Assembly (NCBI GenBank): GCA_965223275.1
Contig: OZ244992.1
Location: 2,993,134 to 3,057,133, forward strand
DNA length: 64,000 nucleotides
From: Nitrospirales bacterium
GTDB lineage: Bacteria; Nitrospirota; Nitrospiria; Nitrospirales; UBA8639
Reading direction: 5' to 3'
Under the pieces are notes generated by a model. It ran no database searches, had not been told where the DNA came from, and saw nothing but the letters and a program-made list of their open reading frames with translations. This document shows, piece after piece, positions 20,138-31,385 of this stretch (positions are counted from its first letter, which is position 1; every line of letters begins with the position of its first letter). The position numbers and the translations under genes are program-made.

Positions 20138-20500
20138 TTGATGGTTGAATTGAGTGTTAGGCAAGTTGAAGGACGTCTGAGCCAGGTAAAGTGTGCCGTA
20201 TGTAAAGGCAATCGGTTTGGGATTGACTCCAGGACAGTCAAAGAGGATGGGGATTGGAAGGCCATTTGTCGAGATTGTTTTTATAACTTCTCCGTGTATA
20301 CGGATATGGAGTTTTATCTTCGAACGCAACCTGATGTTCCGTACCGGCTGCAAGAAATGACCTGCCCTTCCTGCCGGCACAGGGGCGTAATCCTTAATTT
20401 TCGAGCGGTGATTTCTGTTCGAGAGTCGGTGTATTTTCTGACCTGCCCATCCTGCCATACTCAATACACGGAAAAATCGTTTCTTGAAGTATTTGAATAA
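20138..20500 (+). CDS. Hypothetical protein with four CxxC pairs
   Basis: CAVC, CRDC, CPSC, CPSC; GGAG RBS upstream. Confidence 0.8.
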   Translation: MMVELSVRQVEGRLSQVKCAVCKGNRFGIDSRTVKEDGDWKAICRDCFYNFSVYTDMEFYLRTQPDVPYRLQEMTCPSCRHRGVILNFRAVISVRESVYFLTCPSCHTQYTEKSFLEVFE

Positions 20501-20522
20501 ATCTGTCAATAAGGATTTCTCC

Positions 20523-20735
20523 ATGAGCGATGCGGAAAAAACTCCCCCTTCTTCAAAAAAAACCCCAGAAGAAGAAACCGTGGCCCCAAAAGATGTGTCA
20601 CCTAAGCCTCGGAAAGAACTTCATGTGGTTTCCATCCCTCAGGAAGATGAATTGATGGCCGAGGAGATGGCCGAACTTTTTGACGAAGATCGAGTGACCC
20701 ATCGTCATGGAAATTCTGAACCTGAAAAAGACTAG
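20523..20735 (+). CDS. Small acidic hypothetical protein
   Basis: ATG 20523 inside ORF 20484-20735; follows the previous gene. Confidence 0.6.
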   Translation: MSDAEKTPPSSKKTPEEETVAPKDVSPKPRKELHVVSIPQEDELMAEEMAELFDEDRVTHRHGNSEPEKD

Positions 20736-21242
20736 TCTTTTCAGCTAGACCATTGGTTTAGGCCGTTTTTTTCTCGCCTCTAGGCCTATTCTTTCTTTTC
20801 GAAAACTCTTCCAAAAAAAATCCACTTTTTCTCAACTCACACCTAGTATTGGTGTGTCCACTAATTCGTATCTTAAGGGAAATTGAAAGTATTATGTAAG
20901 TTGTTGAAATAATTTATATTTTTGTGCTTATTTTTATGTAGTACTTAAGTGGAATTGAAGTATTATTGTATTTATGTGATTATTGTCTTGCATTTAATAG
21001 GCTAAAATTAGAATAAATTTTCCTTAAAATCATTATTTAAAAGTTTGGTCTTACGCTTCATATCCTAAGTGACTTCACTACGTAGGTTTATCCCTATGTG
21101 TCATTATTGTAGATGTGTCTTTCAGGTGAACACAAAGCGTTGAACCCTAGAAAACACCACTTGCACCATGGAGGATGGAGCAATCTATTCAAAGTCATGG
21201 TTCATGGAGGTATTTGACCATTTTTTCATTGGAGAAAAAATC

Positions 21243-21875
21243 ATGAGTCCAGTTGAACCCTCGAAACGGTCAAAAAAACTCAGTTACCAAGTCACTCATG
21301 CATCGGATGGGTCCCCTTTAATTGAGACCCATGACCATCCTCCCTTCGAACCGGTCGGAGAAAATGGAAGTTTAGATACGGTTCGAGACATTCTCTTCGG
21401 CGCACAAAGTCGGGAATTTGAAAAACGATGTGACCTTCTGGAGCAACAGATGCTTCAAGATCATGCCAATCTTCGAGATGAATTGACTCAAACCCTAGAT
21501 GACCTCAAAGGGCAAATTCAGAAAGAAATGCTCCAACTTTCCCAACAACTACAAGAAGAAAAAAAGACCCGCGTTGATACGTTCGTAGATTTGAAGAAGG
21601 TTGTACAAAGTTTTGAAACCAATTTGACGCAGGGATTTGCCAGGATGGATCAGGAAACCGCCTTGCAGGTTGAGGCGTTACAGCAAAGCTTAGTCGCGCA
21701 GCGAAAGGAATTAGATTTGCAAAGCCAGGAAGCCATGGACAAATTGGAAGCACATTTTCGTCAAGCGGTGCAGAATCTGATGGTCCAGAAGACGGATCGT
21801 GAAGTCTTGGCAGAAATGCTTGTGGATGTGGGCGTGCGTCTGAAAAATGGTCAGTCAGAATCGAAGGGTACCTAG
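21243..21875 (+). CDS. Coiled-coil hypothetical protein (first gene of GTPase cluster)
   Basis: LDTVRDILFGAQ motif then long heptad-rich helix; start uncertain (21168 or 21243). Confidence 0.8.
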   Translation: MSPVEPSKRSKKLSYQVTHASDGSPLIETHDHPPFEPVGENGSLDTVRDILFGAQSREFEKRCDLLEQQMLQDHANLRDELTQTLDDLKGQIQKEMLQLSQQLQEEKKTRVDTFVDLKKVVQSFETNLTQGFARMDQETALQVEALQQSLVAQRKELDLQSQEAMDKLEAHFRQAVQNLMVQKTDREVLAEMLVDVGVRLKNGQSESKGT

Positions 21876-21947
21876 TGTGATGGACGGTGCTGGGTCAAAT
21901 CCCATCTTTCAAAAAAATCTTTGGTTATAGGGTCAAAGCCAATTCCT

Positions 21948-23738
21948 ATGACTGCCTCCTCATCCTCACAATCCTGCCGCCCCTCGATTGAACCGTCCAC
22001 TCAAGAATCTCGAGGATTTTCACAACTTCGGGAGGTGTTACTGGGTCCGGAACAAACCCAATTACGCCATCTTCAAAAACAGCTTGATGATTTTACCTTA
22101 CAGCCTGATGCGGTGAGCCGGGTCTTGCCCGATGCTATTCGTTTGAGAGCCCAACGAGACCAACGACTTCTGGCCTCAATGATTCCCATTACTCAAGAGG
22201 CCCTGTCGGTGTCGATCAAGCAGTCGCCTCATCTGATCGTCGATACTCTCGCCCCAATCCTGGGTCCTGTGATCCGAAAGGCGACGCTTGATGCGATGCG
22301 TGGCATGTTGCAGTCTTTTAATCAAACGTTGGAATACAGTATGTCCTGGAACGGTCTCCAATGGAGATGGGAGGCGTGGAAGACCGGCCGGCCCTTTGCT
22401 GAAGTCGTGCTCCTGCATACCCTGCACTTTCGGGTGGAGCAGGTGTTCCTCATTCATAAACAGACAGGGCTGCTTTTGAACCACGTCGTAGCCGAGGGAA
22501 TCCAGGCACAGGGGGAAGAAGTGATTTCCGGAATGTTAACGGCGATTCAGGATTTCGTACGTGATTCTTTCGGGAGTTCCAAGGAAGAAGCATTGGAATC
22601 TCTCCGAATCGGAGAGCTCACCGTATGGGTCGAACAAGGTTCTCAAGCTATTCTCGCGGGTGTAATTCGAGGGACTCCTCCCGTTGAGCTCAGAAGAGTC
22701 TTCCGGGAAACCCTCGAGGTTGTTCAGTCCCAATTCTCTGGTCTGATTCAGCAATTTCAGGGAGACATCACTCCATTTTATGACACTCGCCTCTTTTTGG
22801 AAAACTGCTTGCAAGCTCAGTTTGTTCCGAAACCATCTCGAATCTCATGGGGGGTTTGGATGCTCCTATTGATGTTGTGTGGTGTTGGAGGGGTGTGGGC
22901 TGCTCGGACTTGGAACGAACATCAACAATGGAGTCGGTTTTATGAGGCCGTGGGAAAAGAAGACGGATTGGTGATTACCTCCACAAAAGAACAGATGGGA
23001 AAGACGGTGTTGTATGGATTGCGTGATCCGTTGGCTCGAGATCCTCAGGCACTTTTGGACAAGATGGGACAGACGGGTCACAATGTCTCCTTTCATTTCC
23101 AGCCGTATTTAGACTTGACCCCTAAATTTGTGGGCCAACGGGCAGAATCTCTGTTAGCCCCTCCTCAAGGTGTTTCAGTTCATGTAGAAGGATCTAAGTT
23201 GATTTTGCGTGGGGAGGCCTCTCACTCTTGGGTGAAACGTGCCCTTGCCTTCGCACCATTTTTACCTGGGGTCACAGCAGTCGACCACCAAGGGTTGGTC
23301 GATAAAAATTGGGCACGCTTTCACCGTCACCGTCAGGTTCTGGAAGGGCAAAAGATATTCTTTGAGATAGAAGAGTCACGAATTTCTGATGAAGAAAATT
23401 TCACGCTGTCTTCCATCCGCAAGAATATTCAAAGTTTGGAGCAACAGGCCAAAATCCTCGGTGTTCAACCTATCGTCGAAATTCAGGGCTTTTCCAGTCC
23501 CGATGGGTTGGAAAAGCTGAATTGGGAGTTGAGCCAACATCGTGCTCAAACTGTGAAACAAGCCCTTTCCACAGGGCCATGGAAACATATTCGCTTAGTT
23601 GCCATTGGAAAAGGGCCTGAGGAGGCAATCCTTTCAAAACAGAATGGTCTCGCCCGTCTTTCTCACGCGAGACGGGTTTCTTTCAACGTGAGAATTCCTT
23701 TACCAGCATCCGATACCGGTGGGCAGAGTACGTTTTGA
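21948..23738 (+). CDS. Membrane protein: cytoplasmic helical plus longin/roadblock-like region, one TM helix, periplasmic BON-like and OmpA-like domains
   Basis: TM WGVWMLLLMLCGVGGVWAA; OmpA-like VEIQGFSS.DG....N.ELSQHRA.TV...RRVSF; start uncertain (21921 or 21948). Confidence 0.8.
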   Translation: MTASSSSQSCRPSIEPSTQESRGFSQLREVLLGPEQTQLRHLQKQLDDFTLQPDAVSRVLPDAIRLRAQRDQRLLASMIPITQEALSVSIKQSPHLIVDTLAPILGPVIRKATLDAMRGMLQSFNQTLEYSMSWNGLQWRWEAWKTGRPFAEVVLLHTLHFRVEQVFLIHKQTGLLLNHVVAEGIQAQGEEVISGMLTAIQDFVRDSFGSSKEEALESLRIGELTVWVEQGSQAILAGVIRGTPPVELRRVFRETLEVVQSQFSGLIQQFQGDITPFYDTRLFLENCLQAQFVPKPSRISWGVWMLLLMLCGVGGVWAARTWNEHQQWSRFYEAVGKEDGLVITSTKEQMGKTVLYGLRDPLARDPQALLDKMGQTGHNVSFHFQPYLDLTPKFVGQRAESLLAPPQGVSVHVEGSKLILRGEASHSWVKRALAFAPFLPGVTAVDHQGLVDKNWARFHRHRQVLEGQKIFFEIEESRISDEENFTLSSIRKNIQSLEQQAKILGVQPIVEIQGFSSPDGLEKLNWELSQHRAQTVKQALSTGPWKHIRLVAIGKGPEEAILSKQNGLARLSHARRVSFNVRIPLPASDTGGQSTF

Positions 23739-24244
23739 ACCCCATCCAGAAAAAGATTTGTATGTTGGGAGGGTTTGGGGTAGGAAAAACTAGCCTGGTT
23801 AAGCGATTTGTCACAGGGCTGTTTTCGGAAAATTACCATACGACAATTGGGGTGAAGATCGATCAGAAACTCGTGACTCTCAATCACACGCAAGTGCTGC
23901 TCGTGCTATGGGATCTATACGGCGAGGATGATTTTCAAAAAATTCGCGCCTCCTATCTGCGAGGCACGTCAGGGTATGTCCTGGTTGTTGACGGAACTCG
24001 GAAAGAAACTGTGTCGACCGCGGTTCACTTGCATGAGTTTGCCAGAAATGTCATCGGTGAGGTGCCCTTTGCCTTGATGGTCAATAAGCACGATTTAACC
24101 CAAGAATGGGTGTACGAAGCGTCTATGCTGGATTCGTTAGCCCGAGAGGCATTGATGATAATAGAAACGAGTGCCAAAACGGGGCAAGGAGTGGAGCAGA
24201 CCTTCCTGGAACTTACCCGTCGTATGATTGAATCACCCCCATGA
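23735..24244 (+). CDS. Rab/Ras-like small GTPase
   Basis: G1 GGFGVGKTS, G2 TIGV, G3 WDLYGE, G4 NKHD, G5 TSAKTG; TTGA start/stop overlap with the upstream gene. Confidence 0.93.
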   Translation: MNPIQKKICMLGGFGVGKTSLVKRFVTGLFSENYHTTIGVKIDQKLVTLNHTQVLLVLWDLYGEDDFQKIRASYLRGTSGYVLVVDGTRKETVSTAVHLHEFARNVIGEVPFALMVNKHDLTQEWVYEASMLDSLAREALMIIETSAKTGQGVEQTFLELTRRMIESPP

Positions 24245-24253
24245 AACAGATGT

Positions 24254-24269
24254 GTCCGATATCTCGGAC
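24254..24269. promoter_or_regulatory. Palindromic operator candidate upstream of the sigma-54 activator
   Basis: GTCCGA-TATC-TCGGAC perfect 6-bp inverted repeat. Confidence 0.35.
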
Positions 24270-24402
24270 CATCTTTTGACCAATATCCCGGTCTTGCCAC
24301 CTACAAACTGACGATTCAGCTCTCTTGAAGGTTTGGGGGGAATTGATAGCTCCGACCTTGTGAATCCATAGGGTGAGATCTGATTACGAGAGTGTGGTGA
24401 TT

Positions 24403-26166
24403 ATGGCGAAGTGGTTTGATGCGTTGGTTGTTCAACGGGTGTCCAGTCATGTCTTTGAGCTACATGATCCCATACCTGACTGGTACCCTAGGAGTCCTGC
24501 GTCGACCGAATTTTTTCTTGCACCCCTGGATCTACTTCAGCAATCACATTTTCTTCAATCCTTTTTAGAAGAGGCTGAGAAATTTTGGCTATCAAGCGAA
24601 GAGGGGTATTTGCGATCCGGGCTATGGAGTGAACCTGAGTATTTTGGGCAGGACATTTTTTTGGAGGCCACGGCTGTCGTGGAAGAAGGGCGTCACCAGC
24701 TTGTTGTTCAGCAGGTGACATCTGACATCCATCCCTTGAAATCCGTGTTACAAAAAGCCCGTGAGGCCTATCTTCTGCACGACCGGGATCGCCAAGAATG
24801 GGAGCATGCCAAATCCGTCTTGACCAAACGGCTGCAACAGCACGAGCAAGTCAATGAAGACCTGACGACGATGCTGGACCGACTGCCTATGGGAAGTCTT
24901 TTGGTTGATCGGACGGGTCGAATACTCTATGCCAACCATCACGCGATTGAGTTGCTTGGTCCTCAGGCCTTGCCTCCAAAAGGGCAATGGGTGGCTGATG
25001 TTTTTGAGTTGTCGGAGGGAGAGTGGATGAATCTGAAAAGTGTGCTGGAGTTACCTCATGGAACTGGGACATCCATTGGATTTCCCGTTCCAAAAGGTTT
25101 CGGACGAAAAAGCGATCTTGAGATGGGCATTCATGATGGTCCTCAACATTCTTCCAACAAAGTGGTATTGATCAAGGAAGCGTTTCCTAGGCTGGCCACT
25201 CCCTCTTCTCCCAAAGGGTCTTTTCATTTCCATGAACTGATTGGTGCCAGTGACGAAATGCAGGGCTTATACCAAACCATTGGGGATGTCGCACGAGTAG
25301 AAGTTCCCGTATTAATCCAGGGCGAAACCGGAACAGGAAAGGAACTTGTGGCGCGAGCGATCCATCAATTAAGTGCACGAGCCAATCGAGCTTTCGTGGC
25401 CGTGAACTGTGCAGGGCTGACGGAATCCCTTTTGGGAAGCCAGTTATTCGGGCATAGGAAAGGGGCATTTACGGGAGCGATGTATGATCAGGAAGGATTT
25501 TTTGAGGCCGCGCAAGGAGGGACGTTATTCTTGGATGAAATTGGCGATATGCCACATCCTGTGCAAACGATTTTGCTGCGGGCTCTTCAGGAAAAGGAAA
25601 TTATTCGTCTGGGAGAGTCTAAGCCACGAAAAGTCGATGTGCGCGTCCTTGCAGCCTCCAATCAACATTTACAAGAGCTCGTTCGTCGCGGGCAGTTTCG
25701 AGCGGACTTGTTTTATCGCATTCGCGTCGCTCGGTTGGATTTACCTCCTTTACGGAAACGACCGGGTGACATTTCCCTTCTCTGTCAAGCCTTTTTGGAA
25801 AGAGGAAGGGGGCCGATGGGGAAACCATCTGTAGAGAGTTTCTCTGTGCACGCCAGACAACATTTACTTCACTACCCCTGGCCAGGGAATGTGCGAGAAC
25901 TAAAAAGCGCGGTTGAATATGCCCTGATCCGTTGTTCGGGGAGGATGATACAACCTGGGGATTTACCTCCAGAAGTCAGGTGTTTCATGGATGAGAGCAC
26001 TGATGCTCCCCAGGCAGAAGGAAAGGAACGAGATCATATCTTGCAAGCGCTTCGACAAACACAAGGGAAGCGGAGTCAAGCCGCGAAAGTGCTTGGTATG
26101 AGCCGTTCCACGTTGTATCGACGGCTGCGGGATTTGAATATTTCGTGGTCTCAGTTTAGGGAATAA
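24403..26166 (+). CDS. Sigma-54-dependent transcriptional activator (unknown N-terminal domain, PAS, AAA+, Fis-type HTH)
   Basis: [38 protein letters not shown]-terminal [19 protein letters not shown]. Confidence 0.95.
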
Positions 26167-26489
26167 AAAATAGGCAGGAAGGGAGTCTGTATCCGTTTCA
26201 CTTTTCCTGTGTCTGGGTGTTGCCTTCATCTCTCATTTCTTTTAACATCAGATGTTTGGCCGTAGCGGTTTGATGATTTGTTGAGAGCGGTTTTGAAGCT
26301 CCTTGACGGTCTTGAAAAATTCCCCTTTATTGCCATTGCATCCAATCTCACCCGAGTGTACCCCTCTAACGCCTTGAAGTTTCCATGACGCACTCCAGTT
26401 TTGCACTAACCGCCTGGATTATCACGTCTATCACCGTATGTTGATGCATGCTAACAGTGGTTCGATTGCTAACCAACGAAAGGATTCGT

Positions 26490-27547
26490 TGATGATTTAT
26501 TTTGTGCATGTGGTGTTGTTCCTCTTCTTTCTGCTTATCCCTTCTGTAGCCACTGCGGGTGTGTTGGGTTCCGTCGTTTTAAAAGATGGAAGTATCATTC
26601 ATGGAGATATCGTGGATATGATGGAAGGGAAACTTCAAGTGAAAGCCGCCTTTGGAGCCGATAAACCTTTTATGATCAAATGGGAAGAGGTTGCCAATAT
26701 TGCGACTAGTCAGCCCATTATTCTGGTTCTAGGGGATGATGTGCGGGTCACCGGAATCGTGGAGAAGGGCGATCCGGGGACTCTTCGACTCACGAGCAAA
26801 CCTTTATCCGAGCCGGTCCTGATTAATTTAGATACGGTTACCGCTATTAACCCTCCTCCTCAAGTCCCGGTCAAGTTTAAAATCAATTTAAATTTGGGGA
26901 CAAAATTCTCGTCTGGGAATACAGATGACGCACAAATTAATTTGTTGGGTGGATTTGTGGCGAGGAGTGAACGTCTTCGCGTCATCCTCGATGCACGGTA
27001 TTTCTATTCCGAAGAGGATGATAGGGTGACTGATCGAAATGCCTTTGGGACATTGGATCTTAACTATTTCATGACCCAACGATTCTATTGGGTGTTGGCC
27101 CTCCTGATGCAGCAAGATACCTTCGATGATTTGGATTTGCGAACCGCGGTGACGACCGGTCCCGGTTATCAGTTTCTTGAGAAAGGCGATCTTTCCAATC
27201 CCTATTTCACCAATACGACATTACAGGGGGATATCGGGATCGGTTATTTATGGGAAAATCGCAAAATTGACGAAGATAGTGACAATGCTGTCTACCGGTG
27301 GTCCTTACGCTGGGAATGGGAGCCCATAAAAAAGCTTACGATCTTTCACCAACATCAGGGTTTTCCGGAAGTGGACGATTTGTCAGCCTATGTGATCAAT
27401 TCACTTCAGGGTATTCGAATCGATGTGTGGGAAGGCATCAATATATCCGCACAGGTTCAATGGAATTATGATAATGACCCGGCCGAAGGTTCAAAGAAGG
27501 CTGATACCGTCGTATTTTTTGCCGTCGGATATAACTACGAGAATTGA
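26490..27547 (+). CDS. DUF481-like outer-membrane beta-barrel protein
   Basis: Signal peptide; alternating barrel strands; SGNTD motif; C-terminal FAVGYNYEN. Confidence 0.8.
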
Positions 27548-27918
27548 CCGTTGTGAGTTCATATATCTTTTTCGTGAGGAAACATTTAGTTGACGTTATT
27601 TTGATTATATGAGGATCTGCAGATTTTAATCCGGACCGTAAAAAGTTGGATGGGTCCACATCGTTTCTAACCGGTAGTTGTTGCAATGGTTCGTTTCTCA
27701 GTCTATTCTAGTCTGAATTCCCCCTCCTAGCTTTTCCCATTTGTTCCAAAAATGTTCTCGTGAAACACTTTGACACAGGTTTTGTGTCTTAATGAGAAAA
27801 GCTTACGCCGCTCGGTGAAAAAATTTTCTTATAAAACAATAGATTCAGCTTGGCATTATTTTTGATATATACAAACGAAACCAAGAAATTGATACGTAGA
27901 CCATTCAGAGGCTTTTGA

Positions 27919-28359
27919 TTGCAAGGGCTAATGGAAATCACATTAACGAAAAATTACTTGCAAGTCGCTATTGTCTCTGAGGATCCAATGGTTGGGGATT
28001 GCCTTCAAGGGATTTTAACGTTTCAAGGATATCACTGCTCTCAAACGATAACTTTTCATCAATTGATAGGTCACTTGTCTTTTGAGCCCGGTTATTCGGT
28101 GGTGTTTTTGGATATGGCGTACTTGATCAAGAAAGAGCAAAATGACGTTCAAGATTGCCTGGATACCCTTTTGAATTCCGGTACTTCCATCATTTTACTC
28201 GTTGATGGTGATTGGGTATTACACTGGGCCGATTTTATTCCAAAAGGGGTGAACGGTATATTGAGAAAACATTTGGACTATCAGCAGATAGAGTTGATGA
28301 TGTCTGAAGTCGTAAGGAACAAAGAAGCAAGTCTCTTAGAAGAGGTGGGATCTCTTTAA
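27919..28359 (+). CDS. Stand-alone receiver-domain protein (divergent)
   Basis: VAIVSED acidic pocket, VVFLD phosphoacceptor strand, GILRK lysine; no output domain. Confidence 0.65.
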   Translation: MQGLMEITLTKNYLQVAIVSEDPMVGDCLQGILTFQGYHCSQTITFHQLIGHLSFEPGYSVVFLDMAYLIKKEQNDVQDCLDTLLNSGTSIILLVDGDWVLHWADFIPKGVNGILRKHLDYQQIELMMSEVVRNKEASLLEEVGSL

Positions 28360-28378
28360 AAATCTCTGCAAATCACAA

Positions 28379-28497
28379 GAGTTTTGGCCCGGGCGATGAC
28401 TCGCCCCTGGTTTCTGGTTACGAATGGGGCTTTAGAGGGGGTACCCTTTCGTGGGTGGTTTCTAGGGGTGAGGAGTCGCCCCAGGCCATCAAAAACT
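28379..28497 (+). ncRNA. Putative structured RNA (long rod-like hairpin)
   Basis: 28391-28410 pairs with 28462-28481 with G-U wobbles and a tandem GA; GGCC/GGCC outer helix. Confidence 0.4.
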
Positions 28498-28856
28498 TTG
28501 GGGATAGTAATCGGCCAGTGATTTTCTTAATGAAGATCAGAGAGGGTTCGGTGTGTGAAATTATTTGAAATTTAAACGGGAATAGGCTTGAGCGTTTGTA
28601 TATTATGAATTAATCCGGATTTAACCAATTTTTTAATTGATGAGAATAGATGGCGGCTTCCTAGATTAGGAGGGCGCCATTTTTTTTGCTAGGATGACCC
28701 CTAGTGATTCAGTAACCGGATATAAAAGGTCCCTGTGTTGGAGGTGTTGTCCCCAGAAACGACTTTGCATCAATATCCCTCTCACCCTTCCAGGTTCTCG
28801 TTGTCGTAATCGATGACGGGCCCCCCTACGTGAACCTTCACCGAAAGGAGTCACCC

Positions 28857-30320
28857 ATGGACATGACAAAATTAACGGAAACTCTTCAGGAAACATTAGG
28901 TGCTACTCTGCCCAGTGTACTGGGGGCGCTTGGAATCCTTGTCGTCGGTTGGTTGGTAGCGGTGGCCATTCGAGCTGGAGTCCGTAAGGGATTGGGCCTG
29001 TTGAATCTCAATAAAAATCTGGGGGCCACCACCGGTACGGAAGTCGATGTGGAAGGGGGGACGGCAGCAGCGGCCTATTATCTCGTGTTGCTCTTAGTCT
29101 TGGTCGGGTTTTTTAATGCCCTCAATTTAGAGCTGGTGTCAGGACCGTTACGAGTGTTGGTAGATCAAGTCCTGGCCTTTATTCCCAAATTGATCGCAGG
29201 AGGAGTGTTACTCCTGATTGCGTGGGTATTGGCCACGGTGGTGCGGACACTGGTGACCAAAGGCCTTCAAGCCACTCAGTTGGATGAAAAACTGAGTGCT
29301 GGCGCCGGAATGAGCCCGATGAGTGAGAATATGGGAAACGTCTTGTTTTGGCTCATTCTTCTCCTATTTCTCCCGGGAATCCTCGGCACCCTGGAGTTGC
29401 AAGGAATATTGGAGCCTGTGCAGGATATGGTCAATACCATCGTGGGCATGATTCCTAACGTGTTTGGGGCTCTGATCATTGGGTTTGTGGGATGGTTTGT
29501 CGCCAAGATCGTGCGGGATTTATTGAGCAGTCTTTTGACAGCCAGTGGGGCCGACCAACTGGGAACGAAAACAGGTCTTCAGGGAACCCTTTCTCTTTCT
29601 AACCTGGTCGGGCTCATTGCGTATATCCTCATTTTAGTGCCCGCTCTCATAGCCGCTTTACAGGCATTGAATATCGAAGTCATCACCAAGCCTGCCACTC
29701 AAATGCTCAATTCCATGATGGGGGCCATTCCCAACATCTTCGCCGCAGGCATCATTTTGTCCGTGGCTTTTTTCTTATCTCGGCTTATCGCCCATTTGAT
29801 GAGTAATTTGCTGGGTGGTATGGGACTGGATCAACTTCCGGCAAAATTTGGGATGGATCATCTTTTCCAAGGGTTGGCGACTCCTTCTCAATTAGTTGGG
29901 AAGATCCTGATTTTTTTTATTATGCTATTTGCTACAGTCGAAGCGGCCAATCGGTTAGGCTTTGGCCAACTCTCTCACTTAGTGGAGATGTTCATCCAGT
30001 TTGGTGGGCAGATCTTGTTAGGGAGCGTCATTATCGGTATTGGTTTTTGGCTCTCGAAATTGGCAGGTGAAGCCATTCGCAGAGTGGAAGGGTCCGACGC
30101 TGGAGTGTTGGCCAATATCGCGAAATTTGCCATTCTGGGGTTAGTAGTGGCTATGGGCCTGCGAGCCATGGGATTGGCTGATGATATTGTGAACCTTGCT
30201 TTCGGGTTGACCCTCGGTGCCATAGCCGTAGCCGTAGCGCTTTCCTTTGGCCTCGGAGGCAGGGAAGCCGCTGGCAAACAAATGGAGCATTGGCTCAGCC
30301 GACTTCGTGGAGAACGATAA
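28857..30320 (+). CDS. TM-helix-repeat membrane protein (CmpX-like, often annotated mechanosensitive ion channel)
   Basis: Repeated units P.L.GAL.IL.VGW.VA..VR; C-terminal AVALSFGLGGREAA. Confidence 0.85.
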   Translation: MDMTKLTETLQETLGATLPSVLGALGILVVGWLVAVAIRAGVRKGLGLLNLNKNLGATTGTEVDVEGGTAAAAYYLVLLLVLVGFFNALNLELVSGPLRVLVDQVLAFIPKLIAGGVLLLIAWVLATVVRTLVTKGLQATQLDEKLSAGAGMSPMSENMGNVLFWLILLLFLPGILGTLELQGILEPVQDMVNTIVGMIPNVFGALIIGFVGWFVAKIVRDLLSSLLTASGADQLGTKTGLQGTLSLSNLVGLIAYILILVPALIAALQALNIEVITKPATQMLNSMMGAIPNIFAAGIILSVAFFLSRLIAHLMSNLLGGMGLDQLPAKFGMDHLFQGLATPSQLVGKILIFFIMLFATVEAANRLGFGQLSHLVEMFIQFGGQILLGSVIIGIGFWLSKLAGEAIRRVEGSDAGVLANIAKFAILGLVVAMGLRAMGLADDIVNLAFGLTLGAIAVAVALSFGLGGREAAGKQMEHWLSRLRGER

Positions 30321-30569
30321 GTTCTGATAGGGATCTCTCCTTGGTCTGGCTCAAAGCCGAGGAGAGATTCCTCTTTAAAATCTCTTAAGAAAGCTGATTG
30401 ATTTGCTTCAAACTTCCCTCTCCCGTCCTGAACGTCCCTTTCCTTTCTGTACAATCTTTTTATTTGGGAATATTTTCTCTGGCTTGGGGATAGTCAGTGG
30501 TGATTGGACGACTGGAATCCTGGTGAAAACTAATGAATACTAGAAGGTTTTTTTCTAAGGAGGTTTGTC

Positions 30570-31385
30570 ATGGAAGATTCCGTGAAAGAAGGGATTGCCC
30601 TGTTAACGACCTACGGCTTGAAGGTCATCGGTGCCATTCTCATTTTTATCGTAGGGAAAATGGCGGCAGGGTGGGTCCAGAAGTCGGTGAAAGCCTGGCT
30701 ACAACGATCAGGAAAACTGGATGAGACCCTCATTAGTTTTTTCTCCAGTTTTTCTCGGTATGTCGTCCTTATTATAACCCTCCTGGCAGTCCTTTCCCAA
30801 TTCGGAGTGGAAACGACTAGCTTAATCGCCGTATTTGGTGCGGCTGGGTTGGCCATTGGGTTAGCTTTGCAGGGTACATTAAGTAATGTGGCCGCCGGGG
30901 TTATGCTCTTGATTTTTCGGCCTTTTCAGGTCGGACAATTCGTGGAAACCGCCGGTATTTCTGGAACGGTGAAATCCTTGACTCTGTTTATTACCGAATT
31001 GGCCACTCCTGATAACGTCCAGATTTTGGTTCCCAATAGTCAGGTGTGGGGAGCGATCGTCAAAAATTACAGTCATCATGAGACCAGACGTGTGGACCTG
31101 GTCATGAGTATCGACTACACGGACGATATTGATAAAGCGATTGAGGTGGTAAAAACCCTGGTGAAAGCGGATGAACGGGTGGCAGCAGATCCAGAGCCGT
31201 TCGTGGTGGTGGGCAATTTAGGTGAAAGTTCCGTGGATTTGACCATTCGGGTCTGGTGTCAAGCGGGTGATTATTGGCCGTTGAAGTTTGATTTGACCAA
31301 ACGATTGAAGCAACAATTTGACGCAGAACAGTTGACGATTCCATTCCCACAACATGTGGTGCATATGGCAAAAGTGGAGGGATAG
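30570..31385 (+). CDS. mscS: Small-conductance mechanosensitive channel
   Basis: AAGLAIGLALQGTLSNVAAGV, RPFQVG, IPFPQ; AAGGAGG RBS. Confidence 0.93.
   Translation: MEDSVKEGIALLTTYGLKVIGAILIFIVGKMAAGWVQKSVKAWLQRSGKLDETLISFFSSFSRYVVLIITLLAVLSQFGVETTSLIAVFGAAGLAIGLALQGTLSNVAAGVMLLIFRPFQVGQFVETAGISGTVKSLTLFITELATPDNVQILVPNSQVWGAIVKNYSHHETRRVDLVMSIDYTDDIDKAIEVVKTLVKADERVAADPEPFVVVGNLGESSVDLTIRVWCQAGDYWPLKFDLTKRLKQQFDAEQLTIPFPQHVVHMAKVEG

Follow-up and report, generated by a model that had tools for sequence, protein, structure and literature searches.

A sigma-54 enhancer-binding protein as the probable output of a Group 1 Rup small-GTPase cassette in a Nitrospirales bacterium

Whether a Ras/Rab-like GTPase of bacteria can pass a signal from the cell envelope to transcription is the question raised by a locus of four genes in a Nitrospirales bacterium. 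The locus lies on the + strand at nucleotides (nt) 21243–26166 of a 64-kb stretch of contig OZ244992.1 (the window, to which all coordinates refer unless stated otherwise), in a genome of 4.16 Mb that is 99% complete. The genes encode a coiled-coil protein, a single-pass membrane protein with an OmpA domain, a stand-alone small GTPase and a sigma-54 enhancer-binding protein. An earlier note, made from the sequence alone, had described four co-oriented open reading frames (ORFs) here, and they were confirmed at these positions. The analysis assigns the locus to the Group 1 Rup small-GTPase cassettes, with a sigma-54 enhancer-binding protein as the probable output of its signalling mechanism.

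Group 1 Rup was defined from genomes in 2014 (Wuichet & Søgaard-Andersen, Genome Biol Evol 2015;7:57; PMC4316618). By that definition the cassette comprises a coiled-coil protein, a protein made of an unknown domain, a transmembrane segment and an OmpA domain, a GTPase without the G3 glutamine, and an output protein with an invariant N-terminal glutamine. The typical outputs are GGDEF/EAL proteins and histidine kinases, the invariant Gln of the output was speculated to act in trans, and the group was placed as the nearest prokaryotic relatives of the eukaryotic Rab, Ras and Rho GTPases (PMC4316618). Candidatus Nitrospira defluvii NIDE0273 is listed as a member in Table S2 of the same paper. 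The window contains these four components in the published order, and the interaction scheme hypothesised in the earlier note had already been put forward in that paper, so the novelty implied by the note does not extend to the system itself. The difference lies in the output, which in the window is a PAS/AAA+/helix-turn-helix (HTH) sigma-54 protein with a candidate target promoter. PMC4316618 makes no mention of sigma-54, either in its text or in its supplement. Neither an experimental study of any Group 1 Rup member nor a later paper on the system was found in the literature searched, and a sigma-54 output of Group 1 Rup is undescribed in that literature.

The reference collection contains homologues of the membrane protein from at least 545 species, in phyla and groups that include Nitrospirota, Acidobacteriota, Nostocales cyanobacteria, Desulfobacterota, Verrucomicrobiota and Binatia. 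The named homologues of the locus proteins belong to Nitrospirota, mainly Nitrospirales. Gene neighbourhoods were counted in the 80 best loci of other species, from several phyla, anchored on the membrane-protein homologue. The coiled-coil gene is directly upstream of the membrane-protein gene in 74 of the 80 loci, the GTPase gene is directly downstream in 74, being divergent in 5 Desulfobacterales loci, and all four components stand in the canonical order in 64. The genes for the coiled-coil protein, the OmpA membrane protein and the Rab-like GTPase are a near-invariant trio. A second survey, anchored on the GTPase, used an even sample of 151 Nitrospirota genomes; such a survey had been proposed in the earlier note. 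All 13 stand-alone GTPase homologues (E ≤ 3e-25) were found immediately downstream of a membrane-protein homologue, and five weaker matches lie inside frames of 800–1150 residues that look like another family. Judged by these gene orders, the four-gene arrangement is far beyond chance. Co-occurrence of the GTPase with its partners, whose absence would have counted against the reading of the earlier note, is clear from both surveys.

The five Desulfobacterales-type loci (L026, L031, L042, L050 and L068) carry a distant GTPase of 37–44% identity with Leu or Ala at the position of Ras Gln61, and the gene is divergent from the coiled-coil and membrane-protein genes. In L026, L031 and L042 a sigma-54 AAA+ match follows the GTPase, and neither type of the N-terminal domain described below was detected there. 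Two Nitrospirales genomes, G053 (C29, C2) and G161 (C7, C15), have a second, more divergent pair of membrane-protein and GTPase genes.

The actinobacterial conservons (CvnA–D) and MglA/MglB are also stand-alone GTPases wired to two-component-type proteins in conserved operons; on MglA itself, the source gives only the interaction network (PMC4316618). The GTPases of these systems belong to the MglA family and have a Roadblock/LC7 partner, whereas that of the window is Rab/Ras-like, has the Asp of DxxG and has an OmpA-anchored partner. The conserved G3 aspartate is missing from MglA. The MglB partner that marks the MglA family was sought with PF03259, but neither the genome nor 20 relatives yielded such a protein.

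The probable output protein and its candidate target promoter

The fourth gene (nt 24403–26166, + strand) encodes 587 residues, and its earlier reading as a sigma-54 activator is borne out by the Pfam match to Sigma54_activat (PF00158, E = 5e-67). Pfam also reports HTH_8 (1.7e-13) and a PAS domain; with NCBIfam, the boundaries are placed at about residues 153–260 for PAS, 279–445 for AAA+ and 542–576 for HTH_8. The GAFTGA motif (residues 354–359), Walker A (GETGTGK, 307–313) and Walker B (DEIG, 378–381) are intact, and the AlphaFold2 model has a predicted local distance difference test (pLDDT) score of 88.6. The genome encodes rpoN (sigma-54) and about 20 sigma-54 activators. With NtrC-family activators such as NorR, DctD/NtrC1 and PspF–PspA, the protein has in common a central AAA+ domain with GAFTGA, a C-terminal HTH of the Fis type and, at the N-terminus, a module by which assembly is presumably gated. 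It differs from them in the regulatory module, which consists of a Rup N-terminal domain (N-domain) and PAS, not of a receiver, GAF or V4R domain.

The N-domain of the activator, here called type A, was delimited by conservation to residues 1 to about 125 (nt 24403–24777), and no Pfam match was found for it. It is modelled with confidence as an alpha/beta core, beta-beta-alpha-alpha-beta-beta-beta, followed by a long helix, at the start of which lie Gln117 (nt 24751–24753) and the near-invariant Arg120. The domain alone, used as a query against 1.84 billion representative proteins, retrieved 536 representative clusters at E ≤ 1e-3. Residues W27, Q117 and L124 are invariant, P25, A58, W62, S72, G73, A89, A91 and R120 are near-invariant, and R120 is present in at least 90% of the sequences. 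Gln117 is found in all 47 aligned N-domains and in 97% of 141 representatives.

Genes that follow the GTPase gene in other loci match these first ~125 residues even where the remainder of the protein is unrelated. Their products are histidine or hybrid kinases, a GAF-kinase, proteins of HD-GYP type or sigma-54 activators, and the fusion partners overall also include GGDEF/EAL and stand-alone forms. A Pfam scan of 114 N-domain representatives found HATPase_c in 62, Sigma54_activat in 4, HD_5 in 4, GGDEF in 3 and EAL in 1; by these counts the sigma-54 fusion is a minority form. In the kinase versions the helix bearing Q117 and R120 runs on into the H-box, the phospho-acceptor (DHp) helix, and the N-domain therefore occupies the position of an input or sensor domain.

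A second form, type B, occurs in other lineages in proteins encoded after the GTPase gene, namely cyclases, PAS-only proteins of 292 residues and short proteins of 170 residues. Like type A it has no Pfam match. Type B resembles type A at borderline significance (hhalign E = 0.002, probability 12%), with a conserved Gln aligned onto Q117. A direct BLASTP link between the activator and the cyclases encoded after the GTPase in Planctomycetes-type loci was rejected as not significant. Of the 80 loci, 74 contain a type A and/or type B gene, and 68 of these have it no more than 1.7 kb 3′ of the GTPase gene; in L045, L059 and L080 the gene has been relocated yet is still within the locus. By its distribution the N-domain is a dedicated module that travels with the GTPase whatever output follows, as expected if the GTPase communicates with the activator.

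Type A and type B genes stand in tandem downstream of the GTPase gene in 19 of the 80 loci: in cyanobacteria (L027, L029, L036, L046, L049, L054, L058, L060, L063, L064, L067, and further L071, L073, L075, L079, L081 and L082), in Nitrospirales (L013) and in Desulfobacter (L069). The type B protein, stand-alone or a cyclase, comes first, and the type A kinase or activator second.

What the activator might control was examined in the DNA around the module. The canonical promoter TGGCAC-N5-TTGCW was rejected, with 21 matches against 26.6 expected and none near the module above chance. The relaxed pattern TGGCA[CT]-N5-TTG[CA] has 51 sites in the genome; 32 are intergenic, and 14 of these 32 have TTGA. 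Pattern search and positional conservation singled out one of the intergenic sites as the candidate sigma-54 promoter, TGGCAT-N5-TTGAT (TGGCATTATTTTTGAT, nt 27851–27866, + strand), which is located 1.6 kb 3′ of the activator gene, in front of a gene for a small receiver-like protein. The element is kept at the same relative position 3′ of the activator gene in L005, L010, L011, L012, L013 and L024. A receiver-like gene follows it in L005, L010–L012 and L024; in L013 no ORF was found after the site.

The palindrome GACACA-N5-TGTGTC (nt 27772–27788, + strand), a candidate upstream activator sequence conserved in relatives, lies 79 nt upstream of the -24 element, and the same element is at -79 in L005. 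Related GAGACA/TGTCTC copies occur in L010, L013, L016, L024 and L057. The pattern has just 2 copies in the 4.1-Mb chromosome, and its combination with the -24/-12 pair (nt 27772–27866) is found once in the genome and is positionally conserved in relatives. On this basis nt 27772–27866 is a candidate target of the activator.

The receiver-like protein (nt 27931–28359, + strand, with a probable ATG at 27931) has no Pfam match; it aligns with receiver-like proteins of relatives, including a genuine receiver at the same position in L024. The candidate sigma-54 transcription unit is closed by an intrinsic terminator, a hairpin followed by U8 (nt 28643–28687, + strand; -24.4 kcal/mol, z = -4.95). 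Between the gene and the terminator is a long structured RNA region (nt 28379–28497). A search of nt 27600–28900 against Rfam gave zero matches, and none at E ≤ 1 for the structured region.

A sigma-54 version with seemingly one dedicated promoter would offer Group 1 Rup a simple read-out by reporter fusion, which the commoner kinase and cyclic-nucleotide versions lack. Such a read-out would make it testable which partner loads or unloads the GTPase, what the Gln and Arg of the N-domain do in GTP hydrolysis, and which envelope condition is reported. Should nothing past the published prediction hold, the locus would be one more well-annotated member of a catalogued cassette.

The GTPase and its partner proteins

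The GTPase gene (nt 23735–24244, + strand) encodes a Rup-type, Ras/Rab-like protein of 169 residues with a Pfam Ras match of 4e-31. As first read in the earlier note, its TTG start overlaps the stop codon of the membrane-protein gene as TTGA, and all of the motifs G1 to G5 are present (GxxxxGKT, the switch I Thr, DxxG, NKxD and SAK). The database gene call starts at ATG 23762, by which strand beta1 would be cut; homologues cover 96–98% of the longer, TTG-start form. The genome has one copy of the GTPase.

Alignment of 80 homologues shows conservation of G1, the switch I Thr, NKxD and SAK. Phe14 occupies the position of Ras Gly12, where 77 of the 80 have Phe or Tyr. G3 reads DLYGE, with Glu64 at the position of Ras Gln61; in the family this position holds E in 52, D in 10, A in 8 and Q in 1 (n = 79). 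The lone GTPase of the 80 with Gln is that of L056 (WDIYGQDD), whose partner is a short type A protein of 191 residues. Because the GTPase lacks the equivalents of both Gly12 and Gln61 of Ras, GTP hydrolysis probably needs a partner. Gln117 and Arg120 of the N-domain are candidates for this helper role.

The membrane protein (nt 21948–23738, + strand) has 596 residues and corresponds to DUFX:OmpA of Group 1 Rup. In the AlphaFold2 model the pLDDT averages 72 overall and rises to about 90 in the periplasmic part. The cytoplasmic portion comprises helices at about residues 20–158 and a conserved alpha/beta domain (residues 163–268, nt 22434–22751) modelled as beta-beta-alpha-beta-beta-beta-alpha. 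The sole hydrophobic segment, at residues 299–319 (nt 22842–22904), is the transmembrane segment. Two small alpha/beta units (residues 341–438) are modelled in the periplasm and are followed by an OmpA-like peptidoglycan-binding domain (residues 471–564, nt 23358–23639). The latter scores 34.9 bits against PF00691 (cut-off 27.2) and carries the peptidoglycan-binding motif NxxLSxxRAxxV at residues 525–536. Foldseek matched it to OmpA/Pal/YfiB structures (E = 3e-6), with template modelling (TM) scores of 0.66–0.76 to the C-terminal domains of Pal and OmpA, and also to TssL/TagL of the type VI secretion system, PorE of the type IX system and the outer-membrane core of the type IV system. In the Foldseek list of the full-length protein the OmpA-domain matches predominate; one match, 9ddt_B, is not assignable to any region.

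The earlier description of this protein, with a single transmembrane segment, an OmpA domain and a BON-like domain, is upheld for the first two and in part for the third. Pfam found no BON domain in the membrane protein. The two small periplasmic units are present, and Foldseek matched Rv0899 over 268 columns at a low TM-score. The PDB entry of Rv0899 describes two separated domains, which we take to be of BON and OmpA-like type, respectively.

The cytoplasmic domain, residues 163–268, is modelled at a pLDDT of only 50–80; at that confidence its order of strands and helices may correspond to that of the five-stranded sheet of Roadblock and longin proteins. Kinship of this domain with the N-domain of the activator was considered and rejected, as the comparison gave none.

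An OmpA-like peptidoglycan-binding protein also takes part in the signalling chain of YfiB–YfiR–YfiN (TpbB), a pathway of envelope stress. That system lacks both a GTPase and a coiled-coil partner, its OmpA-like protein is without a cytoplasmic domain, and a diguanylate cyclase serves as the output.

The coiled-coil protein (nt 21243–21875, + strand), of 210 residues, corresponds to DUFY of Group 1 Rup and is predicted to be cytoplasmic. A GGAG ribosome-binding site precedes the gene, and the homologues in other loci align starting at residue 1. Pfam gave weak helical-repeat matches alone (Apolipoprotein, E = 0.004), which fit the coiled coil proposed in the earlier note.

Signalling model and alternatives

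The signalling interpretation of the earlier note stands in part: comparative genomics ties the four proteins firmly together, and the activator carries a GTPase-associated N-domain. What goes beyond this, namely which way the signal runs, what it is at the envelope and whether any partner acts as guanine nucleotide exchange factor (GEF) or GTPase-activating protein (GAP), is our inference. In the model we favour, the OmpA domain would anchor the membrane protein to the cell wall, and the protein would report the state of the envelope, possibly tension or osmotic change, to its own cytoplasmic domain. This domain and the coiled-coil protein may govern the GTPase, through its nucleotide state or through where it is located. 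The GTP-bound GTPase would then bind the N-domain of the activator, and a signal passing through the N-domain helix and PAS would free the AAA+ domain to assemble. The activator would bind the palindrome at nt 27772–27788, open the sigma-54 promoter at nt 27851–27866 and drive the small receiver-like gene.

Genes for mechanosensitive channels of the MscS family adjoin the Rup module in three arrangements across lineages. MscS is 5′ of the coiled-coil gene in L014, L016, L018, L019, L021, L025, L033 and L051, and it is also a neighbour in L026, in L042 and in the window (nt 28830–31385). This adjacency hints at an envelope-tension theme.

Several points weigh against signalling from the envelope to transcription. 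The putative coupling among the proteins is in every case deduced from gene neighbourhood and domain position. The MscS linkage is confined to Nitrospirota and two Desulfobacterales loci. A terminator- or attenuator-like hairpin with UUUU (nt 24248–24274, + strand; -19.8 kcal/mol, z = -4.6) directly follows the stop codon of the GTPase gene, in the 159-nt gap that separates it from the activator gene. The hairpin parts the two genes, and therefore the four genes need not share one transcript and the activator gene may be transcribed alone. The cytoplasmic domain of the membrane protein has zero Pfam matches, and its profile gave a chance match only against PDB sequences. It was compared by hhalign with six genuine Roadblock proteins, at a probability of 0.1%, and shows no sequence relationship to Roadblock/MglB or longin regulators. 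For the N-domain, Foldseek found no significant structural match (best E = 0.03, TM-scores 0.3–0.5); the weak matches are mostly to PAS domains, with a few to longin-type GEF subunits, and the modelled topology is compatible with a PAS fold. The -12 element of the candidate promoter reads TTGA where the consensus is TTGC, and because the genome has about 20 activators, the assignment of the promoter to this one rests on adjacency and co-conservation.

The N-domain might be both effector and GAP, reading the GTP state and giving Gln117, with Arg120, in trans; we regard this extension as tentative and unlikely. Catalytic residues are given in trans by GAPs of eukaryotic Rab and Rap, the TBC RabGAPs through dual Arg/Gln fingers and RapGAP through an Asn thumb. 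The likeness to these is that the window GTPase has no usable Gln in cis, its Gly12 position is blocked, and its partner has an invariant Gln and a near-invariant Arg. The difference is that neither in sequence nor in fold does the N-domain resemble TBC or RapGAP domains, as judged by Foldseek and by a profile search of PDB sequences in which nothing real was found. The residue at the Gln61 position also varies with the partner, being E or D with type A and mostly A, T or S with type B only. This covariation is confounded by phylogeny, and comparison across the alignments gives a trans-supplied Gln no direct support. The comparison of partners likewise left the idea unsupported: the partner-less Desulfobacterales GTPases carry Leu at this position and have not regained Gln, and the GTPase of L056, paired with a type A protein, does have it. 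If the N-domain were effector and GAP in one, the activator's own GAP activity would time how long it stays switched on. Such an arrangement would parallel, in bacteria, the effector-GAP and dual-finger logic of eukaryotes, and would do so within the prokaryotic lineage placed nearest to Ras, Rab and Rho.

The signal might also flow from inside to outside. The output protein would then sense through PAS, the N-domain would be a GAP or GEF, and the effector of the GTPase would be the pair of OmpA and coiled-coil proteins. The system would adjust wall anchoring or envelope architecture, with transcription by the activator set by PAS independently or in parallel. This fits the PAS or GAF sensor domains that the output proteins nearly always have of their own, the matches of the OmpA domain to secretion-system envelope machines, and the invariant Gln and near-invariant Arg, which would suit a GAP-like role on a GTPase without Gln61. 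However, the N-domain is at the extreme N-terminus and is continuous with the phospho-acceptor helix in kinases, the position of an input domain, and stand-alone N-domain proteins without a sensor domain also adjoin the GTPase. We consider the reverse flow unlikely.

Localisation or sequestration, as with MglA in cell polarity, is an improbable account as well. Here the main task of the GTPase would be to position its partners at a membrane site anchored to the wall; one nucleotide state would retain the activator there, away from the DNA, and the other would free it, with no allostery in the N-domain. A membrane protein fixed to peptidoglycan and an ever-present coiled-coil partner would suit a scaffold, and to our knowledge localisation is how the small GTPases so far characterised in bacteria (MglA, SofG) work. 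However, the continuity of the N-domain helix with the DHp helix of kinases points to conformational signalling. Localisation is also a variant of the favoured model, and most predictions are common to both.

A separately transcribed activator that is uncoupled from the GTPase, its N-domain being an ordinary small-molecule sensor, would fit the terminator-like hairpin and the 159-nt gap, as well as the weak fold matches of the N-domain, mostly to PAS sensor domains, but it is highly improbable given an N-domain gene beside the GTPase in 74 of 80 loci of several phyla whatever the output, its retention in the three loci where it has moved, and the residue at the Gln61 position that tracks N-domain type.

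Neighbouring genes and minor features

Between the activator gene and the candidate promoter, a gene for a DUF481 protein (nt 26438–27547, + strand; Pfam DUF481, 4e-38) is a neighbour, and at most a possible member, of the module. It is syntenic with the module in Nitrospirales relatives, and a DUF481 gene follows the activator gene in most Nitrospirota loci.

On the other side, a 500-bp AT-rich non-coding stretch (nt 20740–21240) precedes the coiled-coil gene and has no convincing promoter. In relatives, GG-N10-GC sites 700–900 bp upstream of the coiled-coil gene were considered and rejected as coding conservation, because they are inside a conserved zinc-ribbon ORF or the MscS gene. Just 5′ of the module in the window, nt 20138–20735 hold a zinc-ribbon-like ORF of 120 residues and an ORF of 83 residues. 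Both are kept in place in close relatives, with 65–75% and 54–69% identity, respectively.

Outside the window, at G000:C1:3908507-3909006, the AAA+ domain of an activator is spread over two overlapping frames with an internal TGA, and this activator gene may be frameshifted or broken.

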